DNA from: an uncultured Spirochaetota bacterium
GTDB lineage: Bacteria; Spirochaetota; Spirochaetia; SZUA-6; Fen-1364
DNA length: 64,000 bases
Assembly: GCA_963734545.1 (NCBI GenBank)
Contig: CAVTHO010000007.1
Coordinates: 288,001 to 352,000, forward strand
Direction: 5' to 3'
Shown here: piece by piece, positions 24,675 to 43,887 of the stretch
How the letters are laid out: the number at the start of each line of letters is the position of its first letter
How positions within the stretch are numbered: position 1 is the stretch's first letter
The notes under the pieces: model-generated
The model's database searches: none
What the model saw: only the letters and a program-made list of their open reading frames with translations
Told to the model about the DNA's origin: nothing
Position numbers and translations under genes: made by a program

Positions 24675-25857
24675 AGGAACCGGAAGAGCACCTTGAAGTC
24701 CTCCTGATCGATCCGCAGGAAAAGCACCCCGAAGTATGCGTTCTCCGCGTCCTTGAACTTCCGCATGATCCGCGACCCGATCAGCATCGTCCTTTTCTCC
24801 AGCTTCACGGTCAGCTCCAGGTCGGTATGCACGATGAGATCCCGGATGAGGTCCGGGGAAGTGTGGGCAAACAGGAGCCCGGAAGCGCTCATGTCGATGA
24901 TCGGGGCCTCGTAGCGGCGCTCGGTGCTGCGCTCGACCTTGAAGTACCCGTTCGTGACGAGCGAATAGCAGAGCGTCCGGGCGAACTCCTGCACGTACTC
25001 GAATATGTCACGGGAGAGGCGTTCCCTGCGGGCCCCCGTGTTCCAGACGTGCACGTAGCCCACCACGTATTCGTTGTACAGCACCGGGCACCAGAGCTCC
25101 GACACGATGTCCTGCTTGGTCTTCTCATAAAGGATGTTCCCGAGCTTGCTGGTGATGACGTGTGCCTGCGCGCCGGCCTCCTCCTCCAGCTTGATCAGGT
25201 CCGATTTCGTGATGACCCTCTCGTCGGGGAAGGGGTCCCGGCTGGGAAAGTCCTCCGCGGTGGAGGGAATCCAGAGAGCACTTGCCGAGACGCACGATGA
25301 TCTTCTCCTCCCACGTGCGGGGCATTCTGTCGCGCATCATCACGATCTTGCTGTCGGAGACCAGGGATTCCATCCGGGTGCGGAAAGTCTGGACGACTTC
25401 TTCGATACGCTTCGGATCGAAAGCAGTCGATTCTTCCGGCGGCTCCACGGGGTTGAACCGGTCGGACTTTGGAAAATTCAATTCCACTTTTGTGCCGTGG
25501 AGGCTGAAAGAGACGTCCATGCCGCCCGCGACCCTGACCCGCTCGAACTTGCGCTGCAGGTTCTTGTACACTCCGGGCGGCTGGTCCACGATCATCTTCT
25601 CCCCGGCTGACCTCCTGCACGCGGGAGACGAAGGTATGATAGTTGTTCTTCAGATAGAAGAAGACACGGATTTCCTCTCCGGGCTCGAACCCCTCCAACT
25701 TCCCCTCGAGCGGAGACATGATCAGCCCCTTGTCACTGATTCCCGCGAAAAGGCACGTGAGCTCCTTTCTGCTTCCGTGAATATCGCAGGGTATGTTCTC
25801 GTCCACGAGGGTTTTGAACACGAACTCCTTTTCGATCCGCCCGACTTCCGTTCCCAT
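24596..25857 (-). CDS. PilZ/DUF1577-type c-di-GMP receptor (frameshifts near 25600 and 25280)
   Basis: RxxxR motif QRKFERVR, DxSxxG motif DMSASG, GAF-like middle (CPVLYNEYVVGYV). Confidence 0.78.
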
Positions 25858-25862
25858 CGATC

Positions 25863-26620
25863 TCACTCCTCCAGAAGCCAGCGATACGCAGAAGGGAAGT
25901 ACTTCTCCTTGGATTTCTCTCGTTTCACCGCCAATTGCGCAAGGCTGAGCTGCAGGTCCGACACGAGCCACTTTTTGCCCGCGCGCGCCATGTAGATCTC
26001 TCCTTCCGCGCTTCCCTCCGCGCCGAACAGCCGCACATTGGCCGCGATCTCTCCGTCGTCCTGCATCTTGGGCGTGCCCAGGCGGAAGGAGCGGGGAGCG
26101 TAGCCCTGCTTCAGCCCGTCTGTCAGCGTGTCGAGCACGGTCTTTTCCGATTCTGCGGCCAGGAGCGCGCGGTCGGGCTTGCCCGGCCACGAGACCCGCA
26201 AGGAAGGTTTCGGCAGTGGAAGCCGCGTCGTTCTCATCCTGGTTCTCCGCGCGGTCATCACCCAGGGGGCCGATCTTGAAATCCTCCGGCAGCGCGCGTG
26301 TCTGTCGGCCCAGTGCCATGAGTGTGGTCACGTTGGCAAGCGGCCGCGTACGAGCGAGCAGAGGTTCTGCCTGCTGGTCCGGGGCCAGGGTGATCGATCG
26401 AGCCGGACCGGGAGCGGGCTTCGGGTGCGCGGGCTCAGTTTTCGGCGCCTGCTCGGGGCCGGGCGGCCGGACCAGCGGAGGGGGCGCTTGCGCGAGCGCG
26501 GCCGGCTCGGCCGGGCTGCTGGACGGGCGCGGGAGGAGTGCCCTGCCGCGTGCTCTTGTGGCAGGCGAGAACCGTGAGAAAGATCAACAGAATTGCCGGG
26601 AAGAGCAGCCGCGTTCTCAT
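25863..26620 (-). CDS. Hypothetical lipoprotein (frameshifted)
   Basis: MRTRLLFPAILLIFLTVLA-C lipobox, Pro/Ala-rich tether, C-terminal domain in the 25863-26261 frame. Confidence 0.6.
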
Positions 26621-26766
26621 GACTCCTTGTATCATTCTCGGGAGAAATCGTCAAACAGCCGGGGAGTGCAGGCAGGGGCCGGGGGCTGCCGATCGGCCTT
26701 GCGGGTACGCCGTCCATGGCCCCTTTACACTGCCGCGTCCCGCCTTTTACTGTAGGGAGAATCTCA

Positions 26767-28057
26767 ATGGGTGAAAAAGAGCGCATCCTCGACCACCTGG
26801 AAAACGACTATACCGAGCCCATCCGGGACCCGGTCTGGAAGCACATCTACGTGTCCCGGCCTCTCCTGCGCATCCTGGAGCTCGAGCAGTTCCAGAAGCT
26901 GGATCGCATTCGCCAGCTCGGCCCGGCGTATCTTGTCTACCCCGGGGCCACGCACACGCGCCGGTCTCACAGCCTGGGCGTCTTTCACCTGGCGCGGCGC
27001 ATGATCACCACGCTCGTGCGGAAGAACCGTGTCGTCGATATCACCCTGGAAGGTGTGAAGTCGTTCCTCTGCGCGGCGCTTCTGCACGATATCGGCCATT
27101 ACCCCTTTGCCCATTCCCTCAAGGACCTCGAGGTGGAAGCGCACGAGGCGCTTGCTGCGCGCCAGATCCTGTCCGACTTTTCCGCGGCCATCCGCGCGCA
27201 CCTGCGTATCGAGCCGGAAGCGGTCGCTTCCATCATCGACCACCGGACGTCCTACCGCGGCGCGGAGAACGTCGCGTTCTACTGGAAGCTCCTCTCGGGC
27301 GTGCTGGATCCTGACAAGCTCGACTACCTCAACCGGGATGCATTTTTCTGCGGAGTTCCCTACGGAATACAGGACGTGGATTTCATCCTGGAGGAAGTCT
27401 ACCCGCACGTGGAAAACGGCGTGGCGATAAGCCCCAAGGGGATCACGGCGCTGGAGAACATCCTGTTTTCGAAGTACCTGATGTACAAGACCGTCTACTG
27501 GCACAAGACGGTGCGAATCGCGACCGCCATGATCAAGAAGGCAATCGGCATGGCGCTGGCGGAGGGCGCCATCAGGAGGCAGGATCTGTACGGGCTGGAT
27601 GATGAGGAGTTCTTCGCTCGTTTTTCGACTCGCCGCATCCCCGGCGCGCAGCTCATCGAGGACACGCGGAACCGTGTCCTTCACAAGCAGGTGCTGAGAC
27701 TGCCCTTCAAGGACGGGAATGCCGCGCACCGCCGGCTCGAGGATGTCAATGCCCGGCTCGCGCTCGAGCAGGAGATAGCGGCGGAGGCGGGGAGGGCGCT
27801 GGGCAGAACGGTGATGCCCGACTGCATCGTCGTCGACATTCCCGAGCGCATCTCCTTCGAGCTGAGCATTCCCGTAATCGATCCGGGCGTCCGAGTCGGA
27901 GGAGACGGATGCGGGAGATACCTCGTACGTGTTCAACCGGATGGGGCACGAGGACTTTCCCCGGTCGCTTCGCACGATAACGGTAAGCGCGCGTCGGGAC
28001 CCGGACCTGCTGGAAGCGCTGGCAAAGCTCGACCTCGCGCGTCGATTCGCGCCATGA
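26767..28057 (+). CDS. HD-domain phosphohydrolase (dNTPase/YdhJ-like; frameshift near 27890)
   Basis: IRDPVW, RIRQLG..VYPGATHTRRSHSLG, ALLHDIGH, DPDKLDYLNRD. The shifted frame ends ...LARRFAP-TGA, overlapping the ttcA ATG. Confidence 0.85.
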
Positions 28058-28878
28058 AGGACCGCTCGCGCGCAGACGCGCTGCTGCTGGAACGCTTCTC
28101 ACGTCACGCAGGCCGCGGAATCAACAGGTTCGAGATGATCGGGCCCGGTGATCGCGTCCTCATCGGCGTGTCGGGAGGCAAGGATTCGCTGGCCCTGAGC
28201 CTTGCCCTGCAGGAACGCCGGAAGTGGGTGCCGGTCACCTACGAGCTGTTCGCGGTCCAGGTCGAATGGCGCGAGTATCCCATGACGGACGAAGAAAAGG
28301 CGGCAATCGACGGATTTTTCGACGGCGTCGGAATCCCGTTCCGCCGGATACAGGCACAGATTGCGCCTCCCACGTTCGGAAAGAAATTCAGCTGCTACAC
28401 CTGCGCGCGCAATCGGAAGCGAATACTCTTCGACGAGGCGACGCGACTCGGGGCGCGAAAAATCGCGCTGGGCCACCACATGGACGATATCGCCCGTACG
28501 ACCCTCATGAACATGTTCTTCCACGGTGAGCTGTCGACCATGATGCCGGTGCAGCATTTTTTCGGAGGAACGCTGTCGATCATCCGGCCCTTGTGCGAGA
28601 TCCGGGAGGCTGAGGTGTCCCGGCTGGCGGCCCGGTTGGGGCTTCCCTCAGCCCCCAACAGGTGTCCACGCGCGGATAAGAATCGACGCCTGCTGATGAA
28701 GGAGATCCTGCGGCAGGCTTCCCACGTGGACAGACACGCGGTCTCCAACGTGTACGGGTCGGCGTGGAGGGTCAATTCCGAGTACCTTCCCTCGCCAGAC
28801 CGCGCCGATGAGGGTGGGCCCGTCGGCGAAGAGGAAGAGGAGGATCCGGACCCGCGCTTGCCGGAGGCCTGGTTGTAA
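28054..28878 (+). CDS. ttcA: tRNA 2-thiocytidine(32) synthetase TtcA family
   Basis: PP-loop SGGKDS, CYTCARNRK, ALGHHMDD, IIRPL, CP. Confidence 0.8.
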   Translation: MKDRSRADALLLERFSRHAGRGINRFEMIGPGDRVLIGVSGGKDSLALSLALQERRKWVPVTYELFAVQVEWREYPMTDEEKAAIDGFFDGVGIPFRRIQAQIAPPTFGKKFSCYTCARNRKRILFDEATRLGARKIALGHHMDDIARTTLMNMFFHGELSTMMPVQHFFGGTLSIIRPLCEIREAEVSRLAARLGLPSAPNRCPRADKNRRLLMKEILRQASHVDRHAVSNVYGSAWRVNSEYLPSPDRADEGGPVGEEEEEDPDPRLPEAWL

Positions 28879-29692: not shown

Positions 29693-30130
29693 ATGAAATC
29701 GCAGCTCATGGAGGAAAGGATACGCCGCGTGACGGTGCTCTTTTCCGAGCTCAGCTTCCGCGTGACAGAGGACGAACGCTCGCACAATGCATACTCTGCC
29801 ACATTTGAGGACGACGACGCATTCCAGGCCGGCGTTCTCATCGAGAGGGGAAGCAGATTTCTTGAGCTGGCCTACGCCCTGACATTTCCCCCTTCCTACT
29901 CGCAGCTCATGAAGGGGAAGTTGGAGGAAATGCTGAAGACCTGCTACGAGTTCGGCTGCTACGTGAGCCTCCAGCAGACTACTACGGAGATCAGCTTCTC
30001 GGTATTTACGAAGATCTACTACTCGGGATTGAACTACTACTCTCTGCGCGACAGCCTTCGGGATTTCCGCGAGTGCGTTGCAGCTCTCATGGATCTCCTG
30101 GAGATGGGCAAGGACGGGCTGGAGGCGTAG
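29693..30130 (+). CDS. Hypothetical protein (145 aa), possible YbjN/chaperone-like fold
   Basis: SD GGAGAG, good codon usage, alpha-beta3-alpha-beta2-alpha-like pattern. Confidence 0.65.
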   Translation: MKSQLMEERIRRVTVLFSELSFRVTEDERSHNAYSATFEDDDAFQAGVLIERGSRFLELAYALTFPPSYSQLMKGKLEEMLKTCYEFGCYVSLQQTTTEISFSVFTKIYYSGLNYYSLRDSLRDFRECVAALMDLLEMGKDGLEA

Positions 30131-30736: not shown

Positions 30737-30875
30737 CAGGGCGAGGCGCTGCGCCCGTAATACCCCGGCATATACGTGCTTCCTTCGCTCTCCAGCCCGC
30801 GAGATATACTTGTAGAAGGAGATTCGGTGCGTGCTGCCATTTTTCTTATTTTCGGCCCGGGAAATCATTTACATA

Positions 30876-33800
30876 ATGGCGGTTCCAGTGAATAATGGCC
30901 GCGACGTGGCGCGAAACCATGCCAATCTCCTCCTGCTCTCCTGCTGCCTGGCTTCGCTCTTCTGCGGAAGCCGGCTCTTTGCCGCTGACATATTTGTCCC
31001 GCCCAAGGAAGCTCCCACGACCATCTTTTCCACAAAGCTGGGTTCCGCCGATGTCGACCTCAGCCTCCTTGGATCCTGGACTGCCGGTGTCTCATTCGGC
31101 GCAGGCCTTCTTTTTGTGCCCGGGCTTCCCGCACAGGCCCTCGATTCATTCCCTGCGCTGGACCAGGGATTCATCTTCAACCAGACACCTGACATCACGA
31201 TCTCCCTCTGGCTGCTGAAAAGATTCTATCTGAACGTTACCGTGCTGGGAAACTTCGCGAACAACACTATCCAGCTCGGGTACAAGGGCGCTCCGGGCGA
31301 GACGATTCAATCCGTTGTTGTGGGGAACCAGGGCATCGCAATTCCCTCCAGTCAGCTCGTGCAGATACCCAGCCAGCCGTTCGGTTCGCTCGGGGCAATG
31401 GGCCAGTTCATCTCCGGCAACGCGACGAACGACCTGATGCTGCGTTGGGACCCTGCCCAGCGAAAAACCAAGACCTTTGTGGGAAAAAACGAGCTTGTTG
31501 AGAAAGAGATAGGCATCGATACCTATGTGCGAGGCAGATACTTCTTTCTGCCCGACACCGGGCTCGACGCCGGGAGCCTTCAGGTCTTCCTGGAGGACCC
31601 GGAGGGAACATTCACAAGCACGACGCCGCCTGATGGCCGGAAATACCGGCGGGCCACACTTGACGACGTGGTGCTGGATTCCACGAATGGGCTGGTATCA
31701 CTGAGAAATGCCTTCAAAGGCAGGGTCCTGGTGTATTACACGAAGGGCTCGCCAGTGGGAACAACCGGGGTCGGCACGCTGCCGAAGGAAGTGCTCTACG
31801 TGCCCCCGGCTCTGGGACCTTCTCGGGATCCGACCCAGTCGCAGGCGTTCAACTGGGCAATCACCTACTTTGGCCAGGCAATGACCGAGAGGCAGGTCAC
31901 GCTCCTTGCGGTGAGCGCTTCACCTTGTTTGCTTCTCTGGGAGCCCGGCGACAATTCACCGTTTGAAATCGACAACTCCTACGCGTTCGCCTCCGCGCCG
32001 CCTTCCGACCTGTCGAAGATTTCATATCGGTTCAATGCAAAATCTTCGAGCGCGGCGCTGCCCACCGGCCTCATTTTTCAAAGCATCCCCACGGAAGTCC
32101 GGTTCATGGTTCTTGTGGACCGCAATCTCACAGGCACGAACAGGTTCAGGAATTTCTTCCCCTTCGAGGACGCAAGCACGGATCCTGATGGTCTCCTGTA
32201 CGGCCCGAAAAGGGATTCGCTGACTGGCAGCCTTCCGTTCGATATCTTCTACCAGTTCCTGTCACCTGTCTCGGACATGACCCTCGAGGCAAACATTGTC
32301 CCCGGATCCGTCAGCGTGCAGGTCAACGGAACGTCCGAATCCCGTATTGAAGTGGATCCGGTCTCGGGGCGCCTTACCATACTTGCCGAAGTTCTTCCCA
32401 CGGACCGTATCGTCGTCACGTACAGCAAAGTCGAGCAGGGAGTTGCAGGCGGGGACATCCTGTTCGCGTGGCGGGACAAGATCCCTCTTTCCGATTCGGT
32501 GAACCTTTTCTTTTCAACCGGGATCCGGTGGAACGCCAATCCATGGACGTTCTCCCAGGAGGCCTATTCGAAGTCGGGGACCATCATCGCCACGGCAGGA
32601 ATCGACGGAAAGGGCGAGAACCTGTCGTACTCCGCGGAGGCGGGGATCGCGTACACAAACCCTGATACCACGGGAATCCTCAGGCTGTTCGGCATGGAAG
32701 GCAACTCCACTTCGATCGACCTTTCGGAGGAAAATGCTTTCCCCGCGAGCGCGCCCTATACCTCCCTCGTCACTGAAATACCCGGACTCACGCCGGCGAA
32801 TGCCCGAGGCTTGCTCTATTACCGCGATTATCGCTCGTATGGAGCGTTTGGCTCCTCGACACTCAATACGATCGACTACACAGGCTCGACGTTGATTCCC
32901 TATTCGAACGGCAATCGGATGGGTCCCTACAACGTGAAAGGAAGCAGTGGCAACCTCAATTCAGAGAGCCTCGTTCTGGATTACAGGCTCGCCAGTAACG
33001 AGTGGGTGGGCACGCAGCTTCCGATCTCGCCGGGGTCCGACGCGGATCTTTCAGGTGCCCGGGCAATCACGATCCGGTTGCGGGCGCTGAACATGTCGGG
33101 CAGCAGCGTGAACGTCTCCCTCCAGATAGGCAGTGTCTCGGAGGACCTCGACGGTTCAGGCGTGCTCAAGGCTGAGACATCCTCGACACAGACGGGATTC
33201 TCATTTGTCGATCAGTCCCATGCAGGGATAACGCTCAAGGTCGGCGCAGGCCCCAAGCTGGAAGGCAACAGCAGGCTGGACTCTGAGGACCGAAACGGGA
33301 ACACCATCCTCGACCTGGAGGACGCGACCCGGGTACTGACCGCGGCGTCTTCTTCGTTCCCTATTGCTTCCGGGTCACTGAGCTCAACCTGGGCACCCTT
33401 CACGCTGCAATTGAATGACGCCGACAGGCAGAAACTCCTCCAGGCGCGCGGCGTGCGAGTGATCATCCAGGAATCGGGCGGAGGCACGGCCACGGGCCAG
33501 ATCCTTATCGATTCGATCACGATCCAGGGAACGCCGTTCTGGCCGCAGACCGCTGCCGTGGACCGCCCCAATGTCCACGTGCAGGAAGTTTCTGAGAATT
33601 TGGTCGGAACTGCCGCGGACCTGGAATCCAGGTACCCGGACAGCCTCAAGCGGTTCCATCCCGACGGAGAGCCGAACCAGGTGCTGGAGACAAGCTGGGG
33701 ATCCCCTGCCGCCGTGACAGCGCCGTTCACCGTGCAGGGCTTCGTTCCGCAGGGCACGGGCGGAATCCAATACAACACCATCGTTTCGTATGTTCGCAGC

Positions 33801-35819
33801 AATACAGTGGGCGCGACGTACACGTTTTCTCTCCTGGATTCCCAGTCAACGCCGCGCGGCGTTTCCTGGTCCGTGGCCGTTTCCGACAATGTGTGGCACG
33901 AGATCAAGGTCTCCCGCAATGACGGCACGGTCCGCATGGACGGCACCGTCATTGGGAGCCCTCTCAGGTTCGATTCATCCTATGAAAACCTGGCTCAGCT
34001 TACCGTCGTGGTGTCGGGCGTCCCTGTCACCGACCCTCCGCCCGGGAGCGGTCTGCTCTACATTGACGAGATCTACTGTACGGACCCCCAGGGGAGCGTC
34101 GGTGTCGCTTTCGTCGGCAATCTTTCAGCCAAGTTCCCCGGCACCGTGCTCGCTGCCGGGAATGTTCCCCTGGTCTCGAATGTGGCGCTGCGCCAGGACG
34201 TATCCCTTGTGTCAGCGGGATTCGCGCCGCTCTATGGCATTCCTTCTCCTTCGGAAGATCTCTCATCGCGTACTCAGGCGGATGCGGACCTCCTCTTCGT
34301 GCGCACGAGCGTGGACGTCCGGCTGAGGGAGGCCGCGGGGTCATTCAGCGCATCGGGGGGCCACCGGGTGAAGATCCCGGCTGATTCCTTTCCCGTGACC
34401 GTGGTCGACGCCTTTTCTCTCAACTGGGCGGGCGGGTTCTCGCGGGAGAATATGCTCGTTCTCACCCCCGGTTCCTTCCTCACATTGTCCCTCGGTACGA
34501 CCGCCAACGCAGACCCGGATGAAAGCGTCGGCACGGGACTCCTCAACCAATCCTGGCAGGCGAGCATGGCGCTGAGTCCCTTTTCGCCCCTGACGGTCAA
34601 TTCCACCCTGTCATTCTCCCAGGCGGTATCCGGATACCGGCTCCCGCTCGAATGGTACGGCGAGCGATGGGCGAGGGAGGCGGCGCTTGTGGTCCCATGG
34701 TTCGGCGGCTCGGATGTTCTGCGCAGCGAGCAGCTCGGATTCAAGACCGGGATCCCCGCGGCCCCCTTCGGCTTCAGCCTCGAAGCGGAGGCGAACACGG
34801 CGAGGAAGGAGGACAGCACGCTGACCGGGCTCAGCCAGCAGAACGACCTGTCCCTCTCCGCGGCCCTCCTGCTGCGCCTTGCCCAGGGCGGGGCATCGGA
34901 CATGAGTCTGAGCCTTGCCTACAGGAGGTTCGTCTCCGTGACGACCTCTCCTGTGCCGGGGCCCCGATTCTCCGCGGAGGCAAATGAGTACTTCGACGTT
35001 CTCTCGTCGCAGGCATATCTGCTGACTGCACCGCCGTTCCAGGAGCTCCTCTCCAACAACTCCGACGGGGTGCTTGCCGCCTGGGAGTCTGCAGGCGCAA
35101 CCCAGGGAATCTACAGCCCCTCCGTGCTCCTCTCGTTCCAGCGCGGCTTCGGCGCGCGGCTCATCGACCTGGTGGTGCCTTCCACGGCCGAGGTCGCGGT
35201 CGGTCAGGACCTCAAGAAGATAGCGGACCTCTCCCAGACGACCATGTACGTGCGTCCCAAGATCGGAATGAGGGCAGTGAACCTTTTCGGGCAGCTGGGC
35301 GTGTATCCGCTGCTTCCGATGGTGCGTACCGATGAGTACAGCATCAGCATGAGCGGGTCAGTGGATGGAGGCCCCGGGCTTCCGACACGTCTCTCCACCA
35401 TCTCCGCCGAGGTGTTTGCCAGCCTGACGGGCACCGGAGACGGAACCCTCACCTTCGTGGAAACCTTTCGGAGAGACCAGGCCACCACCATCACCCTGTC
35501 CAACGACTCGCAGGTGCTTCTGGAGTGGACCACCCGTCCGGAGGGAGGAGTCATTCTGCCTCTCATTCCGAAGGACATCGGCAAGACAGGATACTTCGCG
35601 CACCGTGAAAGCGTCGATGCCACGGTCAGCTACAACGACACAGGTGCTTTCCACCCGTTTACTCTCGTGCTCGGACACTCGAGCTCGATCGTGTACGACG
35701 AGCACGGGTCCATCAAGGCGAGCCTCAATCTCGGCATGGACGTTGAAGACCTCGGCGGCGCGGGGATCGCCTGGCGCCTCGCCTTCCGCGCGGCGCTGGA
35801 GGCCAAATTGACGTTCTAG
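30876..35819 (+). CDS. Very large outer-membrane protein resembling the T9SS translocon SprA/Sov (start may be GTG 30906)
   Basis: Signal peptide, amphipathic beta-strands, terminal Phe (LEAKLTF), and collinear SprA-like motifs (see findings). Confidence 0.7.
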   Translation: MAVPVNNGRDVARNHANLLLLSCCLASLFCGSRLFAADIFVPPKEAPTTIFSTKLGSADVDLSLLGSWTAGVSFGAGLLFVPGLPAQALDSFPALDQGFIFNQTPDITISLWLLKRFYLNVTVLGNFANNTIQLGYKGAPGETIQSVVVGNQGIAIPSSQLVQIPSQPFGSLGAMGQFISGNATNDLMLRWDPAQRKTKTFVGKNELVEKEIGIDTYVRGRYFFLPDTGLDAGSLQVFLEDPEGTFTSTTPPDGRKYRRATLDDVVLDSTNGLVSLRNAFKGRVLVYYTKGSPVGTTGVGTLPKEVLYVPPALGPSRDPTQSQAFNWAITYFGQAMTERQVTLLAVSASPCLLLWEPGDNSPFEIDNSYAFASAPPSDLSKISYRFNAKSSSAALPTGLIFQSIPTEVRFMVLVDRNLTGTNRFRNFFPFEDASTDPDGLLYGPKRDSLTGSLPFDIFYQFLSPVSDMTLEANIVPGSVSVQVNGTSESRIEVDPVSGRLTILAEVLPTDRIVVTYSKVEQGVAGGDILFAWRDKIPLSDSVNLFFSTGIRWNANPWTFSQEAYSKSGTIIATAGIDGKGENLSYSAEAGIAYTNPDTTGILRLFGMEGNSTSIDLSEENAFPASAPYTSLVTEIPGLTPANARGLLYYRDYRSYGAFGSSTLNTIDYTGSTLIPYSNGNRMGPYNVKGSSGNLNSESLVLDYRLASNEWVGTQLPISPGSDADLSGARAITIRLRALNMSGSSVNVSLQIGSVSEDLDGSGVLKAETSSTQTGFSFVDQSHAGITLKVGAGPKLEGNSRLDSEDRNGNTILDLEDATRVLTAASSSFPIASGSLSSTWAPFTLQLNDADRQKLLQARGVRVIIQESGGGTATGQILIDSITIQGTPFWPQTAAVDRPNVHVQEVSENLVGTAADLESRYPDSLKRFHPDGEPNQVLETSWGSPAAVTAPFTVQGFVPQGTGGIQYNTIVSYVRSNTVGATYTFSLLDSQSTPRGVSWSVAVSDNVWHEIKVSRNDGTVRMDGTVIGSPLRFDSSYENLAQLTVVVSGVPVTDPPPGSGLLYIDEIYCTDPQGSVGVAFVGNLSAKFPGTVLAAGNVPLVSNVALRQDVSLVSAGFAPLYGIPSPSEDLSSRTQADADLLFVRTSVDVRLREAAGSFSASGGHRVKIPADSFPVTVVDAFSLNWAGGFSRENMLVLTPGSFLTLSLGTTANADPDESVGTGLLNQSWQASMALSPFSPLTVNSTLSFSQAVSGYRLPLEWYGERWAREAALVVPWFGGSDVLRSEQLGFKTGIPAAPFGFSLEAEANTARKEDSTLTGLSQQNDLSLSAALLLRLAQGGASDMSLSLAYRRFVSVTTSPVPGPRFSAEANEYFDVLSSQAYLLTAPPFQELLSNNSDGVLAAWESAGATQGIYSPSVLLSFQRGFGARLIDLVVPSTAEVAVGQDLKKIADLSQTTMYVRPKIGMRAVNLFGQLGVYPLLPMVRTDEYSISMSGSVDGGPGLPTRLSTISAEVFASLTGTGDGTLTFVETFRRDQATTITLSNDSQVLLEWTTRPEGGVILPLIPKDIGKTGYFAHRESVDATVSYNDTGAFHPFTLVLGHSSSIVYDEHGSIKASLNLGMDVEDLGGAGIAWRLAFRAALEAKLTF

Positions 35820-35988: not shown

Positions 35989-37322
35989 ATGCCTGCAGTT
36001 CTCAGACGTTGTGCGGTCATTCTGGTCCTTTGCGGTTTCGCAGTCGGACCGGCCTTCTCCCAGGAAACGCCTCCCGCCGACAGCCTCGGGTTCAAAATGT
36101 CCATGGGCATCGGTATTCAGAACTTTCACGGCCCGGTAGAGCCGGGCACGTTTTCATCGATCGGGCTCGCGCCGGATATCTCATTCGGTAAATTCGGGAT
36201 CGGCCTGGACCTGACGATCAACTACAACACGGAAAACGGCTCGCTCTATATCCGGAGGGCCGACTGGGTCGTCAACAGCTTTCAGAATTTCCTGGAGGTG
36301 TATCTCCCCAAGATCGCGTACATCCGATACGGCGTGAAGGGCGATCCTTTGTTCCTGAAGCTCGGCTCTTTCGCGGATGCGACCCTCGGCGATGGTTTCA
36401 TCATGGGAAACTACAATAACATGCTGTTCATGCCCGGACCAGCGCCACTTCGGTCTGCAGGCGGATCTGGATGGAAGACTTTTCAACGCGCCCTTCTTCG
36501 GCTTCGAATCTGTCATCGGAAATCTCGCCCGGATGGACGTGATGGGCGGGCGCTTGTATGTGCGGCCCCTTGCCGGTACCGGACCTGCCGGTTCTGAACA
36601 ACCTGGAAGTCGGTTTCACCGCAGCGATGGACACCGACCCTTTCTTCGGCACCATGTCTGTCGGCAATCCTTCCCCGATCGGCGTGATGGGCGGCGATAT
36701 TCGCGTCCCCATCGTCGACATCAAGGACGCGTTCTCTCTGCTCGCGTTCACCGATGTCGCCACCATCCAGACCAAGAGCTGGGGCGGCATGGTAGGGGTG
36801 AGCGGCAGGATCATCAGCATCTTCACGTACGGTCTCCAGCTGCGCGCGCTCGGTGAGGACTTCATCCCCGACTACTTCGGTCCCACGTACGACCTTCTGC
36901 GGGACCAGCAGTACCTCATCGTGCGGACCGGAGGATTCTCACCGGCCATGCTGGGGTGGCTGGCAAGCGTGGGCACGTCCTTCCTTGGGGACACGATTGT
37001 GTTCAGAGTCACCCTCGATGGCCCGTTCGCCCCGAGCCCCTTCACCAATCGCCTTCTGAGATACCCTCACCTGCGTGGTATATTCACAATCGCGGAGGGG
37101 GTCGTGCCGGGGATTTCATTCGATTTCAGCTACGACAAGAAAGCCCTCGCGACGCTCCCTGACCTGGTCAGCGCAGAAGATGCCGCCATTCAGGCGCAGC
37201 TCAACTTCAGGACGGGCCCCGCGGTCATATCCTTCCTCTACAAGATCGTATTCGACCCGACCCAATCCCCGCACCCGTGGCGCGTCACTTCCGGGCTGCA
37301 GAGCTCGATTGCGCTCTTCTAG
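35989..37322 (+). CDS. Predicted outer-membrane beta-barrel protein (frameshifts near 36435 and 36580)
   Basis: Signal peptide (AFS-QE), alternating hydrophobic strands, ends SSIALF; paralog of the next gene's C-terminal domain. Confidence 0.72.
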
Positions 37323-37337
37323 GAAACGGAGGACAGT

Positions 37338-39545
37338 ATGAGGATCAGAGCCACTCTCGCGGTACTGGCAGCCCTCCTGGCGCTGCCGGGCCTGCTTTTT
37401 GCGCAGTCGGCACCTGCGGCGGCAAAGCCGCCGGCCATATCCGTGACCCTCGCCTATCACGAAGACAACAGCGGCACGTTCGACGTCAAGGACGGGAAGG
37501 GCGCATCCGTCACCATGCAGGACGGGGACGACATGCAGCTCGGCTGGACCGTGGTCACCGGCAAGGGAGACCTGGCCGAGCTGAAACTGAACCATACGGG
37601 CACGATCATCAAGATCGCCCAGAACACCAATTTCACTCTCACGCAATTGCGCTCAGAGACGGGAGGCCAGGATGTGTTCAGCCTGGCCTTCGGAAAAGTC
37701 CGTACGGTTGCCGGCAGGGCGTCCGGCAAGGACCAGTACCAGATCAGGACCCAGTCGGCGGTGTGCGGTGTGCGCGGTTCCGACATCGTGTTCGAGTACC
37801 AGGAAGGTGCTTTCGCCCGGCTCTTCACCCTCGAAGGGACGGGCTGGATCCAGAACGCCGCGGGAAACGCGATCGACGTGGCGCAGGGACTGTTCGCGGA
37901 CGCGCTGGGCGCCGCATTCACCGCGGTGCAGATCGCTCCGGACGTGCTCGGCGGTCTGGTCAGCGAGATGAAGTTCAACAGGCTGGATGTGAACGAAACC
38001 ATGGCCGTCAACAAGGCTTACCAGGAAACGCTCGGGACCCCGGCAACGGAGCCGGCACCGGGCCCGACCACGCCCCCGGCGCCGAAGACCAACTCGGCCC
38101 TGGACAACTTCATGACGGCGCTGCGCGACATCATGGGCCTCGAGATCGGCTCCGTCACCATTGGCGGCACCACGTGGGCAAAGGTGGTGCTGCAGCCGAC
38201 ATTCAAGACGGGCAATCTGAAGGCCGCGCTCTATCTGCCCCTCATCTACCACGACGACATGTTCAATCCGAGCGACTACTACAGGCCGGCGGGCAACAGG
38301 GAGTGGAGCTTCGGAACGGATCAACCGAATACCATCGCCGGCGTCGAGGACTTTGCCGTGGACGTCCTTCTCAAGATCAAGTACATCGAGTGGGGACGGC
38401 AGAGAGATCCCTTCTTCTTCAAGGTAGGAAACCTCAACGACATCACCATCGGGCACGGCCTGATCATGCGTGATTTCGCCAACGACGCCGACTTCCCCTC
38501 GGTGCGCCGCATCGGCGTGAATCTCGGCCTGGACCTCGGCGGCTTCGGAGTGGAGGCGATGGTCAACGACGCGGCAGATCCCGAGGTCTTCGGCGGCAGG
38601 ATGTACATCCGTCCGATTCCGGGCGTCAGGGCGGCTCTCGGCTTCTCGACTCTTGTGGACATCAATCCCGCCCGGGACTTCATCGATATTCCCGCCGGCG
38701 CTGTCGGTCCGGTCCCGGCGGGAAGTCCCATCTTCATCAGTCCGGGCATCGACCTTGACCTGCCGTTTGTGGAGAGTGATCCTTTCAGCCTGGTGGCTTT
38801 TGCAGACGGAGCGCTCATGCTGCCGTACTTCCGCTCCTCCCCGAGCATCGGCCTCACGGGCGGCACGGTGATCAATTCGGGGTTTGCCTCCGACGCGGTC
38901 TATGACAAGTCGGCTGCCATGCCCTTCAAGAACTGGGGATTCGCCACGGGGCTGTTTGGAAACCTGATCATCCGCGACTTGACCTGGCGGCTGGAGTTCC
39001 GTGACTACACCGGCGTATTCGTCCCGCAGTTCTACAGCTCCGGCTATGAGCGGCAGCGGAACACGCTCGTGCACAATGTGCTCGCCTACCTGCACGACCC
39101 GGCTGACCCGGTCTGGAATACCCAGAATATGGGCATCTTCGGCGAAGGCGGCATCTCGCTGGACCGGCTCTTCAGCCTCAAGCTCAGCTACTTCTGGCCC
39201 TGGGACAGGAACTCGGCGGGCGATTTCACATTCCTGAATGACGATTTCGCCGTGAAGTTCATCCTGCAGAAGGGCGTCATCCCTGTGGTCAACATCTGGG
39301 GATCCATCTCGTACGAGAGGACGAACTTCGTCCGTTCGATCCAGCACGGTGTGAATCTGTTCGATGCAAACACGGTGGTGAGCACATCGATCAATTACCC
39401 CGTGACGGATAATCTCGACGTGACGCTGCTGTACACCACCACGGCGCAGCGGGACTCGTCGGGCAACCTGGTCTATGCGAGCGCGGGAGACCTGCTGCCG
39501 AAGCTGGACACGTCGCTCTCCATCCAGATGCAGGTCCACCTCTAG
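37338..39545 (+). CDS. FecR-like domain + Pro-rich linker + predicted beta-barrel outer-membrane protein
   Basis: Signal peptide; FecR-like VVTGKGDLAEL..IKIAQNT..IRTQSAVCGVRGS; barrel homologous to the upstream gene. Confidence 0.78.
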   Translation: MRIRATLAVLAALLALPGLLFAQSAPAAAKPPAISVTLAYHEDNSGTFDVKDGKGASVTMQDGDDMQLGWTVVTGKGDLAELKLNHTGTIIKIAQNTNFTLTQLRSETGGQDVFSLAFGKVRTVAGRASGKDQYQIRTQSAVCGVRGSDIVFEYQEGAFARLFTLEGTGWIQNAAGNAIDVAQGLFADALGAAFTAVQIAPDVLGGLVSEMKFNRLDVNETMAVNKAYQETLGTPATEPAPGPTTPPAPKTNSALDNFMTALRDIMGLEIGSVTIGGTTWAKVVLQPTFKTGNLKAALYLPLIYHDDMFNPSDYYRPAGNREWSFGTDQPNTIAGVEDFAVDVLLKIKYIEWGRQRDPFFFKVGNLNDITIGHGLIMRDFANDADFPSVRRIGVNLGLDLGGFGVEAMVNDAADPEVFGGRMYIRPIPGVRAALGFSTLVDINPARDFIDIPAGAVGPVPAGSPIFISPGIDLDLPFVESDPFSLVAFADGALMLPYFRSSPSIGLTGGTVINSGFASDAVYDKSAAMPFKNWGFATGLFGNLIIRDLTWRLEFRDYTGVFVPQFYSSGYERQRNTLVHNVLAYLHDPADPVWNTQNMGIFGEGGISLDRLFSLKLSYFWPWDRNSAGDFTFLNDDFAVKFILQKGVIPVVNIWGSISYERTNFVRSIQHGVNLFDANTVVSTSINYPVTDNLDVTLLYTTTAQRDSSGNLVYASAGDLLPKLDTSLSIQMQVHL

Positions 39546-41284: not shown

Positions 41285-43192
41285 CTACTTGAGCTGATCC
41301 AGTAGTTTCTGCGCCTCGTCCTTGACGTCCGGCTTGGGATTCTTGGCGAGCAGCCGTGTGAGAAGGTCCTTTGCGTCCCTGTTGTTGCCCTCTTTCACGA
41401 ATATCCGGGCAAGCTTGATGTACACGTCCTGGTTGGTGGGATCCTTTGACAGCACGTTCAGAAACGCCCTTTTCGCCTCCGGGAGCTGGCCGGTTTCAGC
41501 GTATGCGAGGGCGAGATTGTACTCGGTGACCTTCGAATCTGGCTGGATGGACAAGGCCTTCGAGAGGTGCGTGATGCTGTCCTGGTACTGCTGCTGGTGC
41601 AGATAGACATTGCCCAGATTGTTCTGCACTTCGTAGGACTCGGGAAGAACCTCCTGCGCCGTGAGGAGGAGGGGAAGCGCCTTGTCCGGCATGCCGCGGC
41701 TGTCGTACATCCCTCCGAGATTGATCAATGCAGGCGCGAACCTCGGGTCCTTCTCCACCGCAATGCCGTAGTATTTCAGCGCGTCATCCACGTTGCCCAG
41801 TTTTTCGTTCGCCAGCCCGAGGATGTAGTTGCCGGATGATGAATTGGGGTCGCGGTCCACCGCTTTCTGCGCGAAGGCGAGGGCCTCCCGCGGCTTTCCC
41901 AGCTTTATTTTCACTGATGCCATGTTGTAGTTGGCCACGGTGCTGTCAGGTTCCTGCGCAAGGGCACGGGTGAATGTGCTCTCCGCGCCGGCGAAATCGC
42001 CGCGCGCCATGTAGGTGGCGCCCAGCTCGCGCATGTACCCGGCGTTGTCCGGCGCGTACTGCGCGGCGAGCTTGAACTCATCCAGCGCGCCGGCAATGTC
42101 GCCCTTGTCGCGGAGGAGGTAGCCGACCATGTAATGGGAGTCGGCGTCGTCTTTTTTCGTCGCGATGGCGGATTTGAAAGCGTCCACTGCCCGCGCCTTG
42201 TCACCGAGCTGCACAAGACTCATGCCGCGGTTGAAATGAGCACGGGTGAAATCGGGACGCAGCGCCACGCATCCCTCGAAAGATTTCTGGGCGTCCGAAA
42301 AAAGCCTGGCGCGATACTGCAGCTTGCCGAGCGCGTACAGGGCGTCCGCGTCGCTGGGATTGAGGCGCGCGGCGGCCTTGTATTCCCGCATGGCGTCCTC
42401 GGAGAGCTTGCGGCTGTCATAGATCTCTCCCAGCGTCTTGTGCGGGAGCCAATTGTCGGGATTCTTGTCGATGGCCTTCTTGGAGAGATCGACCGCTTTC
42501 TGCACGCCTGCCGAATCCGAAGGATTCTCCCTCCACCAGGAAAGCCCTGCAAACGCAAGAGCGTCCGAGTTGTCGGGAGCCAGGGCAACGGCCTGCTCGA
42601 AGGTCTTCCGCGCCTCGTTATACCGGCCCGCATTGAAGGCGGCGGCGCCCTTTTCCATCAGGTCATGGATCTTTTTCTGCAGCTCCTTTTCCTTCGTGGA
42701 GGCGCCTTCGGGCGGCGGCGTGGTCGTCTGCTGAACCACGATCTTCTGCTGCTGGTTTTTCAGCGTGTCAGTGAGTTGCGCGAGCCCTGCCTTGAGCTGG
42801 TCCTGCTGCGCTTTCAGCGCGGCAAGCTCGTTCTGTTTTGCCGCTTCCGCCGCGGCCTTTTTCCGTGCCAGGACATCGTCCAGGGCCGCTTTCACTCTCG
42901 GATCATCGATGCTGAGCTCGTTCAAGACCTTGAGCGCTTCCTCGAACTCGCCCTTTCCGGCGTAATAATCGGCACGCTTCAGGCCCTCAACCACGTTTGG
43001 TCCCGCGGGGGCGGAAACGGGAGGGCGGGTGACCAGGTAAGTCCCGACTGCCACAAGCAGGCAGATTGCCACGATGAGGCCGACCAGCAGAGGCGTGGAG
43101 AGTCTTCGGCCGGATTGGGTGTCCCGTCTCGGTGCGCGCGGCGCGGGGGAGCGGCCGGTGGACCGGCCTTTGTCGTGCGAGGGTGTCTGCAT
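41285..43192 (-). CDS. Membrane-anchored multi-TPR protein
   Basis: Single N-terminal TM, coiled coil, more than 10 TPR repeats. Confidence 0.85.
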   Translation of the reverse strand: MQTPSHDKGRSTGRSPAPRAPRRDTQSGRRLSTPLLVGLIVAICLLVAVGTYLVTRPPVSAPAGPNVVEGLKRADYYAGKGEFEEALKVLNELSIDDPRVKAALDDVLARKKAAAEAAKQNELAALKAQQDQLKAGLAQLTDTLKNQQQKIVVQQTTTPPPEGASTKEKELQKKIHDLMEKGAAAFNAGRYNEARKTFEQAVALAPDNSDALAFAGLSWWRENPSDSAGVQKAVDLSKKAIDKNPDNWLPHKTLGEIYDSRKLSEDAMREYKAAARLNPSDADALYALGKLQYRARLFSDAQKSFEGCVALRPDFTRAHFNRGMSLVQLGDKARAVDAFKSAIATKKDDADSHYMVGYLLRDKGDIAGALDEFKLAAQYAPDNAGYMRELGATYMARGDFAGAESTFTRALAQEPDSTVANYNMASVKIKLGKPREALAFAQKAVDRDPNSSSGNYILGLANEKLGNVDDALKYYGIAVEKDPRFAPALINLGGMYDSRGMPDKALPLLLTAQEVLPESYEVQNNLGNVYLHQQQYQDSITHLSKALSIQPDSKVTEYNLALAYAETGQLPEAKRAFLNVLSKDPTNQDVYIKLARIFVKEGNNRDAKDLLTRLLAKNPKPDVKDEAQKLLDQLK

Positions 43193-43197
43193 GTGTC

Positions 43198-43887
43198 TCA
43201 GTCCTTGATATCGACGTCCACCGGATCGGTCCGGCCCTTGATTGAATCCACTGACAGGTTTTTCGTATCTTCCCCGGCATTGTTCAGGCTGTTCAGCACT
43301 TCGTTCATCAGCGCCTGCTGCCTGGCAAGGGCGGCCTGCCGGGCCTGCTCCTGATCATCCTGGGCCTGACGGAGGAGGGCGATCAGCTTCTCGATGCTCG
43401 GCCTTTGCGGATCCTGGGGGAGGAGCTGGAGAAAAAGGGTGTAGTCGGCAACGGCACCGCTGTAATTCTGGAGCTGCAGGCGAGCCTGGGCCCGGTTGAG
43501 GTAGCCTTTTGCCAGATCCTTGTTGGCCGCAAGAGCGCTGTTGTACATTTCCTCCGCGAAGGCGAACTCCTTGCGGCTGAAGAAGTCATTTCCCATGTTG
43601 TAATAGAAAAGGTCCTTGAAGGAGGTGGCGACGTTCAATCCCCTCTTGAGGATATCGATTGCCTTCTGCGGGTCTCCGAGCTGCTGGTAGATGATCCCGA
43701 GGTAGAGGTAGATCTTCTCGTTTGAAGGATCTTCATTCAGGGCGCTTTCGAGGAGCGGCTGGGCGTCCCGGGGCTTGTTCTGGACGAATAGCGCCTCGCC
43801 CTTGTCGAAAAAAGCGGAAACGGCGAAGACTGCCCCGCAGGAAAAGAGAAGAAAACCGGCCAGGGTCAATCGCTTTGTCATCTGCAT
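43198..43887 (-). CDS. Exported TPR protein
   Basis: Signal peptide, TPR repeats (YLYLGIIYQQLG, YYNMGNDFF). Confidence 0.85.
   Translation of the reverse strand: MQMTKRLTLAGFLLFSCGAVFAVSAFFDKGEALFVQNKPRDAQPLLESALNEDPSNEKIYLYLGIIYQQLGDPQKAIDILKRGLNVATSFKDLFYYNMGNDFFSRKEFAFAEEMYNSALAANKDLAKGYLNRAQARLQLQNYSGAVADYTLFLQLLPQDPQRPSIEKLIALLRQAQDDQEQARQAALARQQALMNEVLNSLNNAGEDTKNLSVDSIKGRTDPVDVDIKD

Follow-up and report, generated by a model that had tools for sequence, protein, structure and literature searches.

The gene at positions 30876..35819 (+ strand) of this 64,000-nucleotide stretch of DNA (the window) raises the question of whether spirochaetes possess a relative of the SprA/Sov translocon and what such a relative would do there. 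SprA of Flavobacterium johnsoniae (PDB 6H3I, 6H3J, 8GL6, and 8GL8) and Sov of Porphyromonas gingivalis, represented by the models TIGR04189 and PF14349, are the outer membrane translocon of the T9SS (type IX secretion system), and SprA is described in PMC10994853 as a capped barrel of 36 strands that opens laterally. In PMC4793230 and in abstracts of the T9SS literature, the system is regarded as confined to Bacteroidetes/Bacteroidota or the FCB group. Our literature search, which covered sources outside subscription journals and supplementary files, found no paper describing a SprA homologue in spirochaetes.

Relationship of the window protein to SprA

The open frame spans 30831-35819 (+), and translation from the ATG at 30876 gives an intact protein of 1,647 amino acids (aa), a SprA/Sov-family giant outer membrane β-barrel protein of a short (∼1,600-aa) spirochaetal subfamily whose members range from ∼1,530 to 1,720 aa. 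Its N terminus, read from the translation, is of the Sec signal peptide type (MAVPVNNGRDVARNHANLLLLSCCLASLFCGSRLFA/ADIF...), with a predicted signal peptide of about residues 1-37 (30876..30986, +) and putative cleavage after ..LFA; in the family alignment, the conserved mature start ..P.PEAPTTIF comes after it. The C terminus reads ...EAKLTF, so that the preliminary description, a ∼1,650-aa protein that starts with a signal peptide and ends in Phe, is borne out. An alignment of 45 family sequences spanning 26 to 84% identity contains 96 invariant columns, distributed along the full length.

The preliminary description had quoted nine motifs as matching those of SprA. All nine are present in the translation in the order stated, and eight of them were aligned in order by hhalign, while the first, FIFNQTPDITISL, lies N terminal to the aligned range. 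The partner in this alignment was a protein scoring 1,017 bits on the curated SprA model (TIGR04189), and the motif pairs (window protein/SprA protein) include NTIQLGYKGAPGETIQSVVVGN/NQLKIKYTGYEDEIVQSVEAGN, NIVPGSVSVQVNG/NIVPGSVRVFLNG, LRLFGMEGNS/AYLDDFEGS, LQIGSVSEDL/VDLGKISEDV, and LDSEDRNGNTILD/PDTEDLNNNGILD. When the family profile was compared with SprA, hhalign returned a probability of 98.5% (E value of 2.4e-15 over 693 columns), and a second comparison gave 95.8% (E value of 7.3e-9); the conserved sequence blocks stand in the same order as in SprA/Sov over ∼700 residues. With the C half, only its first ∼330 residues aligned to SprA. The N-half family profile, run against proteins of 1,944 to 5,000 aa, found three matches at an E value of ≤10 (best, 8.8e-6), all of which carry PF14349 and are bona fide SprA proteins with 482 to 1,017 bits on TIGR04189.

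The profile check proposed earlier succeeded from the side of the family, whose profile reaches bona fide SprA, whereas TIGR04189 itself scored the window protein at just 12.2 bits (E value of 0.018, residues 126-225 only), failing its cutoff of 200. Among the relatives scanned (28 close, 30 distant), TIGR04189 matched 5/28 and 6/30 weakly (best, 3e-5), and Pfam SprA_N (PF14349) matched none; SprA_N was also not found in the window protein at an E value of ≤1. Searches of the PDB by sequence, using the protein and two family profiles, found no SprA; the relation is visible to fold and profile-profile methods only. The Atlas groups the window protein with SprA_N-carrying clusters (25 of 30 matches), and a minority of proteins of this kind, 12% in one Atlas cluster, already bears the SprA_N tag in Pfam.

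For the fold comparison, we used AlphaFold models of two overlapping halves, residues 38-1110 (N half) and 560-1647 (C half), so that the whole barrel is not contained in one model. Foldseek searches of the PDB placed SprA chains first for both halves. The N half matched 8gl6_A (1.5e-31), 8gl8_A (3.4e-31), 6h3i_A (7.2e-28), and 6h3j_A (1.3e-18), the first match after the SprA chains being at 2.5e-7; the C half matched SprA chains at 4.9e-24 to 7.3e-21, followed by a match at 5.4e-7 and by LptD at 2.7e-5. In these half models, a predicted giant barrel and β-sandwich cap domains can be superposed on solved SprA, with the overall fold shared over the whole length. The many amphipathic strands noted earlier fit the models, in which 25 long strands follow one another over the last ∼590 residues, with further long hairpins at residues ∼48-124 and ∼527-595, suggesting that the barrel may have 30 or more strands. 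The SprA likeness of the C-terminal barrel is supported only by the structures of these predicted models.

Given the hhalign E value of 2.4e-15 and the Foldseek E values of 1.5e-31 (N half) and 4.9e-24 (C half), the motif, profile, and fold match to SprA is far beyond chance. Fold, profile-versus-sequence, and profile-versus-profile comparisons agree on a true, shortened SprA/Sov homologue; the reading of the preliminary description is supported at this level of homology, whereas protein export and a FadL/PorV-like partner barrel would be putative. The homology and the fold make it very probable that the protein is a Sec-exported, BAM-inserted, shortened, and strongly diverged SprA/Sov member, forming a very large outer membrane barrel with extracellular β-sandwich caps. 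It shares with SprA/Sov the combination of a signal peptide and a terminal aromatic residue, but it is ∼750 residues shorter than these proteins of ∼2,300 to 2,400 aa and only 16% identical in the structural alignment.

Two kinds of SprA relative in Spirochaetota

The SprA-like protein of the window belongs to a separate clade of ∼1,600-aa proteins found in spirochaetes only, whose members are named “hypothetical” wherever a name was given. A total of 1,033 cluster representatives match the family at an E value of ≤1e-3, and of the 401 Spirochaetota genomes sampled, 187 carry a SprA relative, representing 104 of 153 genera. These relatives are of two kinds. That in the window is more strongly diverged and less firmly linked to cargo with the T9SS C-terminal domain (CTD). 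In a quick FastTree tree that took in five bona fide SprA rows from three clusters, the window subfamily forms a clade of its own on a long branch, distinct from bona fide SprA.

The second kind comprises proteins of ∼1,800 to 2,000 aa from the same superfamily and phylum, which match the window family profile at E values of 1e-34 to 1e-84. In contrast to the window protein with its 12 bits, four of the five tested reach 47 to 121 bits on TIGR04189, the fifth ORF being a miscalled fusion with dinB. They cluster with bona fide SprA in the tree, are without the two downstream barrels of the window subfamily (see below), and are found in the genomes richest in CTD and PorV-family genes; the CTD-rich genomes (13 to 14 scored matches) have this ∼1,900-aa form and not the window subfamily. 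The 20-kb loci retrieved for the ∼1,900-aa forms contained no gene for a PorV-like protein, a CTD protein, or the 450-aa barrel.

Secretion components, cargo signals, and neighboring barrels

All component searches in the genome of origin refer to an assembly that is 89% complete with 4.9% contamination. The preliminary description had noted no PorK/L/M/N genes in the window, which we confirmed, and GldK/L/M/N equivalogs were not found genome-wide either: there was no GldM, no GldN (a model that matched no control genome either), only noise for GldL (best E value of 0.017), and only generic FGE-sulfatase-type matches for GldK (88 bits versus a cutoff of 350). Across the phylum, GldM appears in 1 of 401 genomes, as a fragment below the cutoff (G273, 81.6 bits). 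According to PMC10994853, the CTD binds inside the SprA pore, and it is release, not loading, that requires energy; with GldM absent but for this one sub-cutoff match, the energy source behind substrate release by SprA is thus lacking. PorP/SprF had no match in the genome of origin, and the PorU model matched there by its Ig-like tail only, at no more than 21 bits versus 420. The proposed search for PorV-like barrels was met by a single weak and distant match, in that the PorV equivalog NF033710 was not found in this genome, whereas the family model PorV_fam (NF033709) gave 46.2 bits (cutoff of 90) at G000:C7:743113-743982, ∼420 kb from the SprA-like gene. Since PorV_fam also exceeds its cutoff in B. 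thetaiotaomicron, it is not specific to the T9SS. The genome thus differs from those with SprA/Sov in that the PorV equivalog, PorU, PorP, and GldKLMN were not found at 89% completeness. A precedent is that of Melioribacter and Ignavibacterium, which have SprA, PorV, and Plug and no other T9SS protein in the available text of PMC11705866; like them, the present genome combines a SprA-family translocon with a lack of other T9SS components, but as described there those FCB group members have full-size SprA with PorV and Plug, whereas here a short, divergent form occurs in Spirochaetota with no PorV equivalog found.

A further suggestion, to look for proteins sharing a C-terminal Ig-like (T9SS CTD/FlgD-Ig) domain, proved productive, and the presence of proteins ending in a type-A-like CTD is a feature shared with SprA/Sov genomes. 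The type A model TIGR04183 exceeded its cutoff of 23 twice in the genome of origin (30.2 and 28.7 bits) and in 0 of 14 control genomes, and an iterated HMM retrieved three CTD frames, all ending exactly at the C terminus and each belonging to a protein of >1,800 aa. The CTDs of these three giant proteins also match the general Pfam model FlgD_ig, while Por_Secre_tail was not reported for them at an E value of ≤0.001. No type B CTD (TIGR04131) was found in this genome, with a model that matched no control genome either. Among the 401 phylum genomes, a SprA relative is present in 97 of 113 with a CTD match versus 90 of 288 without one, and by a hand count the same class has 15 CTD-positive genomes, 14 of them with a SprA relative; these co-occurrence counts are inflated by shared ancestry. 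Conversely, 90 of the 187 genomes with a SprA relative have no CTD match, including G030 and G094, the complete genomes with the protein most like that of the window.

The conserved neighbor genes of the window subfamily differ from those of SprA/Sov. Directly 3′ of the SprA-like gene, at 35989..37322 (+), lies a conserved gene for a predicted outer membrane β-barrel of ∼450 aa with a signal peptide and the ending ..SSIxLF. It occupies three frames in this assembly, split by two single-base insertions near 36433 and 36579 (located against L013), and the extra base is absent from all metagenome contigs covering these sites (six contigs from four runs at 36433 and two contigs from two runs at 36579); in relatives, it is a single ORF of 444 to 469 aa. 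Of the related loci, 21 of 23 have this barrel gene directly after the SprA-like one, and of the distant genomes, 3 of 13 do. The next gene, at 37338..39545 (+), encodes a 735-aa protein with an N-terminal FecR domain (residues 71-167; Pfam E value of 4.6e-8) and a C-terminal domain of ∼440 residues that is paralogous to the 450-aa family (hhalign, 99.6%, E value of 6.3e-24, residues 265-702). The FecR-barrel protein is conserved in 21 of 23 loci, and the order of the three genes is retained where the SprA-like proteins are only 26 to 35% identical.

The Atlas model of the 450-aa barrel (pTM of 0.81) has porin-like features, and according to the Atlas the same fold occurs in FecR-domain proteins (TM of 0.80). 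With its signal peptide, terminal ..LF, and these features, the family looks like an outer membrane barrel. A PorV-like identity was ruled out (hhalign probability of 0.4%), and a PDB profile search with the family gave nothing meaningful. The leptospiral ImpL63 model (NCBIfam NF047543) matches 8 of 12 members weakly (best E value of 1.3e-5) and partially matches 561- to 587-aa proteins of four genomes of family f20; the match to the 450-aa family is partial and weak, and ImpL63 is named a cytoplasmic membrane protein, whereas the 450-aa family looks like an outer membrane barrel. Distant relatives of the neighbor barrels occur in 4/4 f20 genomes, and a SprA relative in 0/75 of that family. 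The TPR protein at 41285-43192 was considered as SprE/PorW; phmmer against the PDB gave generic TPR proteins, with no SprE among the best 60 listed.

Proposed role and its significance

The window protein is a reduced SprA-family variant that is probably a motor-less protein exporter. Most likely it would work as SprA does, as a water-filled outer membrane conduit by which large periplasmic proteins, folded or partly so, would leave the cell. Its candidate cargo would be the three giant proteins with a type-A-like C-terminal Ig domain, and, unlike in Bacteroidota, the route would run without the GldKLMN/PorKLMN motor and ring, the PorU sortase, and canonical PorV. Judging from gene order, the two downstream paralogous barrels, one with a periplasmic FecR domain, may be the best candidates for the roles of PorV, as a carrier at the lateral gate of SprA, and of Plug. 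To this explanation as a whole, a SprA-superfamily conduit exporting CTD giants without a motor and with the downstream barrels as candidate partners, we assign a probability of roughly 0.55.

A less likely competitor is that the SprA fold serves another job, the protein and its two neighbor barrels forming an outer membrane complex not dedicated to CTD-dependent export, e.g., for the export of cargo without a recognizable CTD (surface lipoproteins or outer sheath components), the uptake of large substrates, or envelope biogenesis. This would fit the conserved cluster of three genes, whose barrels come from a family not known from the T9SS, the failure to find canonical partners and motor in the genome of origin, the separate long-branched clade, and the lack of CTD matches in every second carrier, among them the nearest complete genomes. 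However, protein translocation is the sole known function of the SprA fold in the available text of PMC10994853, the genome of origin does encode giant CTD proteins, and CTDs and SprA relatives co-occur both phylum-wide and within the class.

We regard it as improbable that the protein is a relic of a once complete T9SS, still made but no gated translocon and serving, e.g., as a structural outer membrane protein. The missing ∼750 residues and the motor, sortase, and PorV equivalog not found here would agree with decay, but the full-length conservation across the 45 aligned sequences, the 1,033 cluster representatives, and the synteny kept with two barrels argue against it, as does the SprA-like gene itself, which is intact while the frame errors of the assembly fall in other genes. 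Least probable by far is a large barrel of another family with a generic barrel resemblance. The SprA chains lead both Foldseek lists by 15 to 24 orders of magnitude, SprA is the sole structural match to align with ∼900 of the C half's 1,088 residues, and the nonbarrel cap region aligns to SprA by profile at 98.5%. An LptD, TamB(-associated), or TonB-dependent receptor identity, named at the outset as the outcome that would speak against SprA, was thus rejected on the Foldseek results for both halves.

Beyond the conduit proposed for this genome, we tentatively consider a wider reading, in which Spirochaetota, described as a phylum without the T9SS, would widely harbor a motor-less descendant or cousin of the type IX translocon, present in two forms. 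The ∼1,900-aa form would accompany numerous CTD cargo genes, with a separate PorV-family barrel gene after each, whereas in the ∼1,600-aa form PorV and Plug would have been replaced by two novel barrels paralogous to each other, and the periplasmic FecR domain of one of them may couple this form to an energy source at the inner membrane.

Protein transport across the spirochaete outer membrane is largely an open question. A 2025 paper on a secreted virulence factor of Treponema denticola states that the factor leaves the cell by an unknown route and that the genome in question has no T3SS, T4SS, T6SS, or T9SS genes (PMC11833123). SprA relatives together with CTD giants and PorV-family genes, but without a GldLM motor, would provide a concrete candidate for a spirochaetal export channel, which is testable because named carriers include the cultivable, nonpathogenic Treponema primitia, Breznakiella homolactica, and Oceanispirochaeta. 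The same set would bear on how a SprA channel can release substrates without the known motor and would broaden the evolutionary distribution of the largest single-chain barrel known. If the wider two-form reading is true, this would be a so far undescribed outer membrane protein export route of spirochaetes, and the SprA translocon would be older and more widespread than the FCB group.

The SprA-like protein and its fold

A single open frame spans 30831-35819 (+) of the window, and its ATG at 30876, the start also found in the closest relatives, yields a protein of 1,647 amino acids. Read from the sequence, it begins with a putative Sec signal peptide (a basic stretch, LLLLSCCLASLF, and ..LFA/AD) and ends in ..EAKLTF, an aromatic terminal residue being typical of outer-membrane barrels; this agrees with the giant protein with signal peptide and terminal Phe of the preliminary description. 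A Pfam scan of the protein returned nothing over threshold, and PDB searches by sequence and profile did not reach SprA, the outer-membrane translocon of type IX secretion (T9SS). Its sole NCBIfam match was faint, with the curated SprA model TIGR04189 scoring 12.2 bits (E 0.018, cutoff 200; residues 126-225 against model positions 162-256); similarly faint matches to this model came from 5 of the 28 close relatives and 6 of the 30 distant ones (best 3e-5). Failing this cutoff, the protein is outside the curated SprA equivalog.

We folded the protein in two overlapping pieces with family alignments from related loci, obtaining a mean pLDDT of 74.5 for residues 38-1110 and 80.5 for residues 560-1647. 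Foldseek against the PDB placed four SprA entries on top for both pieces. For the N half these were 8gl6_A (1.5e-31), 8gl8_A (3.4e-31), 6h3i_A (7.2e-28), and 6h3j_A (1.3e-18), the next match being at 2.5e-7; for the C half, the SprA chains ranged from 4.9e-24 to 7.3e-21, followed by a next match at 5.4e-7 and LptD at 2.7e-5. The last ∼590 residues of the C-half model form 25 consecutive long strands, and the N-half model has more long hairpins around residues 48-124 and 527-595, suggesting a barrel of perhaps 30 or more strands.

Profile comparisons led to SprA as well. The N-half profile was run against proteins longer than 1,944 amino acids only, which shut out the family itself; three matches appeared at E ≤ 10, all with Pfam SprA_N, the best at 8.8e-6 when scaled to a database of 5.8 billion. 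With 701, 1,017, and 482 bits on TIGR04189, the three are bona fide SprA, and one of their clusters includes Gemmatimonadales records. With a 45-sequence family alignment, hhalign matched query 124-874 to template 236-1158 in these proteins over 693 columns at 98.5% probability (E 2.4e-15), and the C-half alignment gave 95.8% (E 7.3e-9). In the language-model Atlas, 25 of the protein's 30 matches were clusters with SprA_N, the best of which carries the domain on 12% of its members. Eight of the nine motifs listed in the preliminary description face SprA counterparts in the hhalign alignments, while motif one precedes the aligned range. The protein is a conserved and intact outer-membrane protein of the SprA superfamily; it is homologous to SprA, almost certainly a barrel of that superfamily, and very probably built like SprA.

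Two kinds of SprA relative in Spirochaetota

A first search yielded 66 relatives, each named record being a "hypothetical" protein of a Spirochaetia MAG, and a survey with a single genome for each species turned up 33 loci, every one in a spirochaetal MAG. An exhaustive profile search returned 1,033 cluster representatives at E ≤ 1e-3 (553 at ≤1e-30); among the best 150 of these, full-length members have ∼1,530-1,720 amino acids. The best 120 of 343 matches from a distant-member search include Treponema primitia, Breznakiella homolactica, Oceanispirochaeta, and many Treponema sp. MAGs, all titled "hypothetical protein." At E ≤ 1e-5, a relative is present in 187 of 401 sampled Spirochaetota genomes (104 of 153 genera) and in 152 of the 335 high-quality ones; at this threshold it was found in 0/75 genomes of family f20, 1/38 of f25, and 0/8 of f5, and a 1.1-Mb genome from the window's class likewise gave no match. 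The SprA model also matched the Thermus thermophilus control genome weakly (E ≤ 1, under cutoff).

Outside the window's class, many matches sit in frames of ∼1,800-2,000 amino acids. Of five such ORFs, four reach 47-121 bits with TIGR04189, and the remaining one was a mis-called fusion with dinB. In a quick FastTree analysis with midpoint rooting and SH-like support, where branches are long and SprA contributes just 5 rows from 3 clusters, the ∼1,570-1,720-amino-acid forms, the window's among them, group in a clade of 19 rows. Bona fide SprA falls in the other clade (13 rows), nested among spirochaetal forms of ∼1,800-2,000 amino acids. Spirochaetota therefore have two kinds of SprA relative, the window's being the more divergent.

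Gene neighborhood and the two downstream barrels

The SprA-like gene is preceded by genes for an HD/PP-loop protein, a metallophosphoesterase, and a strongly conserved 145-amino-acid ORF, and followed by two Pfam-less ORFs, a 735-amino-acid FecR-domain protein (37338-39545, +), and, on the opposite strand, MutL and TPR proteins. Seen against 23 related loci, the Pfam-less ORFs and a third overlapping frame prove to be fragments of one gene (35989-37322, +), which in relatives is a single ORF of 444-469 amino acids and which we call the 450-aa barrel. Relative to the related locus L013, its three frames arise from two single-base insertions, near 36433 and 36579. Since the extra base is absent in all covering wetland metagenome contigs (6 contigs from 4 runs at the former site, 2 contigs from 2 runs at the latter), the breaks are most likely an assembly error and not the mark of a pseudogene.

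The 450-aa barrel has a signal peptide, ends in ..SSIxLF, and has an Atlas model (pTM 0.81) that, among named clusters, lies closest to porins (score 0.90-0.91). Its fold reappears in FecR-domain proteins (Atlas, TM 0.80), and residues 265-702 of the neighboring FecR-domain protein, or FecR-barrel, are its paralogue (hhalign 99.6%, E 6.3e-24). The order SprA-like gene, 450-aa barrel, FecR-barrel, MutL holds at loci whose SprA-like proteins share only 26-35% identity with the window's, and it recurs in three of the 13 distant genomes compared (G036, G323, and G380); it is absent beside the ∼1,900-amino-acid forms and in two Treponemataceae-type loci. In f20, a family without a SprA relative in our scan, 4 of 4 genomes have partial relatives of the 450-aa barrel, so that the link between this barrel superfamily and SprA is not a strict one. 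Eight of 12 of the 450-aa barrels weakly match the leptospiral ImpL63 model (best 1.3e-5); hhalign shows no relation of the barrels to those of the PorV family (0.4%).

The 145-amino-acid ORF (29693-30130, +), separated from the SprA-like gene by ∼745 bp of noncoding sequence, matches no Pfam family. It is 95-98% identical at loci whose SprA-like proteins share just 49-72% identity with the window's, and still 55-58% identical at the most distant loci, which is unusual for an unknown small protein. The TPR proteins (41285-43192, −, 635 amino acids; 43198-43887, −, 229 amino acids) are syntenic in 16 related loci, distant ones included. SprE/PorW, which binds SprA, is a TPR protein; a sequence search of the PDB with the 635-amino-acid protein gave only generic TPR proteins among the 60 matches listed. 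Upstream, a 720-amino-acid ORF (26716-28878, +) joins an HD domain to a PP-loop (TilS-like) ATPase, and may be a real fusion or a frame artifact; counterparts in the related loci L013, L002, and L004 have about 430-460 amino acids. Overlapping frames at 24596-26331 (−), and in the same genome (G000) at G000:C4:322000-336000 (L061) and G000:C4:379000-393000 (L062), correspond to single ORFs in relatives. Indel errors thus seem common in this 10-contig assembly, and other ORF calls in the window need care.

T9SS parts, CTD proteins, and a candidate export role

The window's genome, 5.14 Mb long and assembled into 10 contigs, is 89% complete with 4.9% contamination. At this completeness, model searches found no PorV equivalog, PorP/SprF, GldM, GldN, or type-B C-terminal sorting domain (CTD), the last two likewise without a match in any control genome. 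GldL gave nothing beyond noise, GldK generic FGE-type matches only (88 bits versus 350), and PorU a match of its Ig tail alone; the broad PorV_fam model reached 46 bits (cutoff 90) at C7:743113-743982, with further weaker matches. The type-A CTD model TIGR04183 had two matches over cutoff here and none in 14 control genomes. An HMM iterated on the genome recovered three CTD frames, each stopping exactly at the C terminus with the shared end ..GIYFI[RK][VI]V.PG.DE[MI]RKVLVV[RK]. Of the parts that the preliminary description had proposed to look for, proteins with a shared C-terminal domain were found and the motor genes were not, and for a PorV-like barrel there is the weak PorV_fam match. The CTD-bearing genes are giant (one of 1,814+ amino acids that runs off its contig, one of some 2,150, and one of >3,000 in several shifted frames), with almost no Pfam domains except a tail FlgD_ig (2/3 tails at E ≤ 0.001). 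A 1,333-amino-acid frame at G000:C7:762829-764142 (−; L071/L072) has two internal domains weakly resembling the Ig-like C-terminal part of PorU (E 1e-4 and 9e-4) and may be another Ig-rich surface protein.

CTD matches over cutoff occur in 113 of 401 Spirochaetota genomes and 0 of 14 controls. Of these 113 genomes, 97 also have a SprA relative and 16 do not; 90 carriers of a SprA relative have no CTD match, and 198 genomes have neither feature. Relatedness of the genomes inflates the resulting odds ratio of 13, so that a Fisher P value is not quotable as a probability. By hand count in the window's class, 14 of 15 CTD-positive genomes have a SprA relative, with 42 carriers among about 78 genomes. 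A single genome among the 401 gave a GldM match, under cutoff: a 239-amino-acid frame at G273:C89:2051-2593, which resembles the C-terminal part of GldM (81.6 bits) and may be contamination.

PorV_fam matches are present in 236 of 401 genomes, 102 of them over cutoff. CTD-rich genomes have up to 90 first-look candidates, often directly 3′ of a CTD gene, as at G034:C199:858-2087, G079:C121:6761-9642 (and on C323), G004:C123:2119-3265, G046:C87:6771-7932, G069:C21:6516-7851, G086:C59:34162-35335, and on G020:C81; one such locus, L066, was rechecked with a purpose-built HMM. Some lineages have dozens of PorV-family barrel genes and 13 or more scored CTD genes, and the pairs stand in genomes without GldM. 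The pairs resemble those of cargo and cognate-barrel genes in the Bacteroidota T9SS.

Searches of the main texts of openly available papers turned up no account of a spirochaetal SprA homologue. A Brachyspira preprint mentions a PorV/PorQ-family annotation (10.1101/2025.01.03.631275), and TXSScan placed T9SS solely in Bacteroidetes (PMC4793230). SprA itself forms a capped barrel of 36 strands that opens laterally, and its pore binds the CTD alongside PorV loops; motor energy extracts the carrier-substrate complex but is not needed for loading (PMC10994853). Melioribacter and Ignavibacterium are reported to have a SprA-PorV-Plug set without the motor (PMC11705866).

Given these data, we put the probability that the SprA-like protein exports CTD cargo at about 0.55. 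The two complete genomes whose protein is closest to the window's, G030 and G094, have no CTD match, which counts against the link between SprA relatives and CTDs, and the genomes with 13-14 scored CTD matches (G004, G006, G020, G034, G046, and G058) carry the ∼1,900-amino-acid form. That the same SprA fold does another job with its own two barrels, the neighbors kept beside it at divergent loci, is less likely; the CTD/SprA co-occurrence and the three CTD frames of the window's genome speak against it. Under CTD export, the three giant CTD proteins would be the best cargo candidates, the 450-aa barrel and the FecR-barrel might take over the gating or carrier roles of PorV and Plug, and release could be driven by something besides GldLM, or by nothing. 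The short spirochaetal form of SprA would then be a conduit for large periplasmic proteins.
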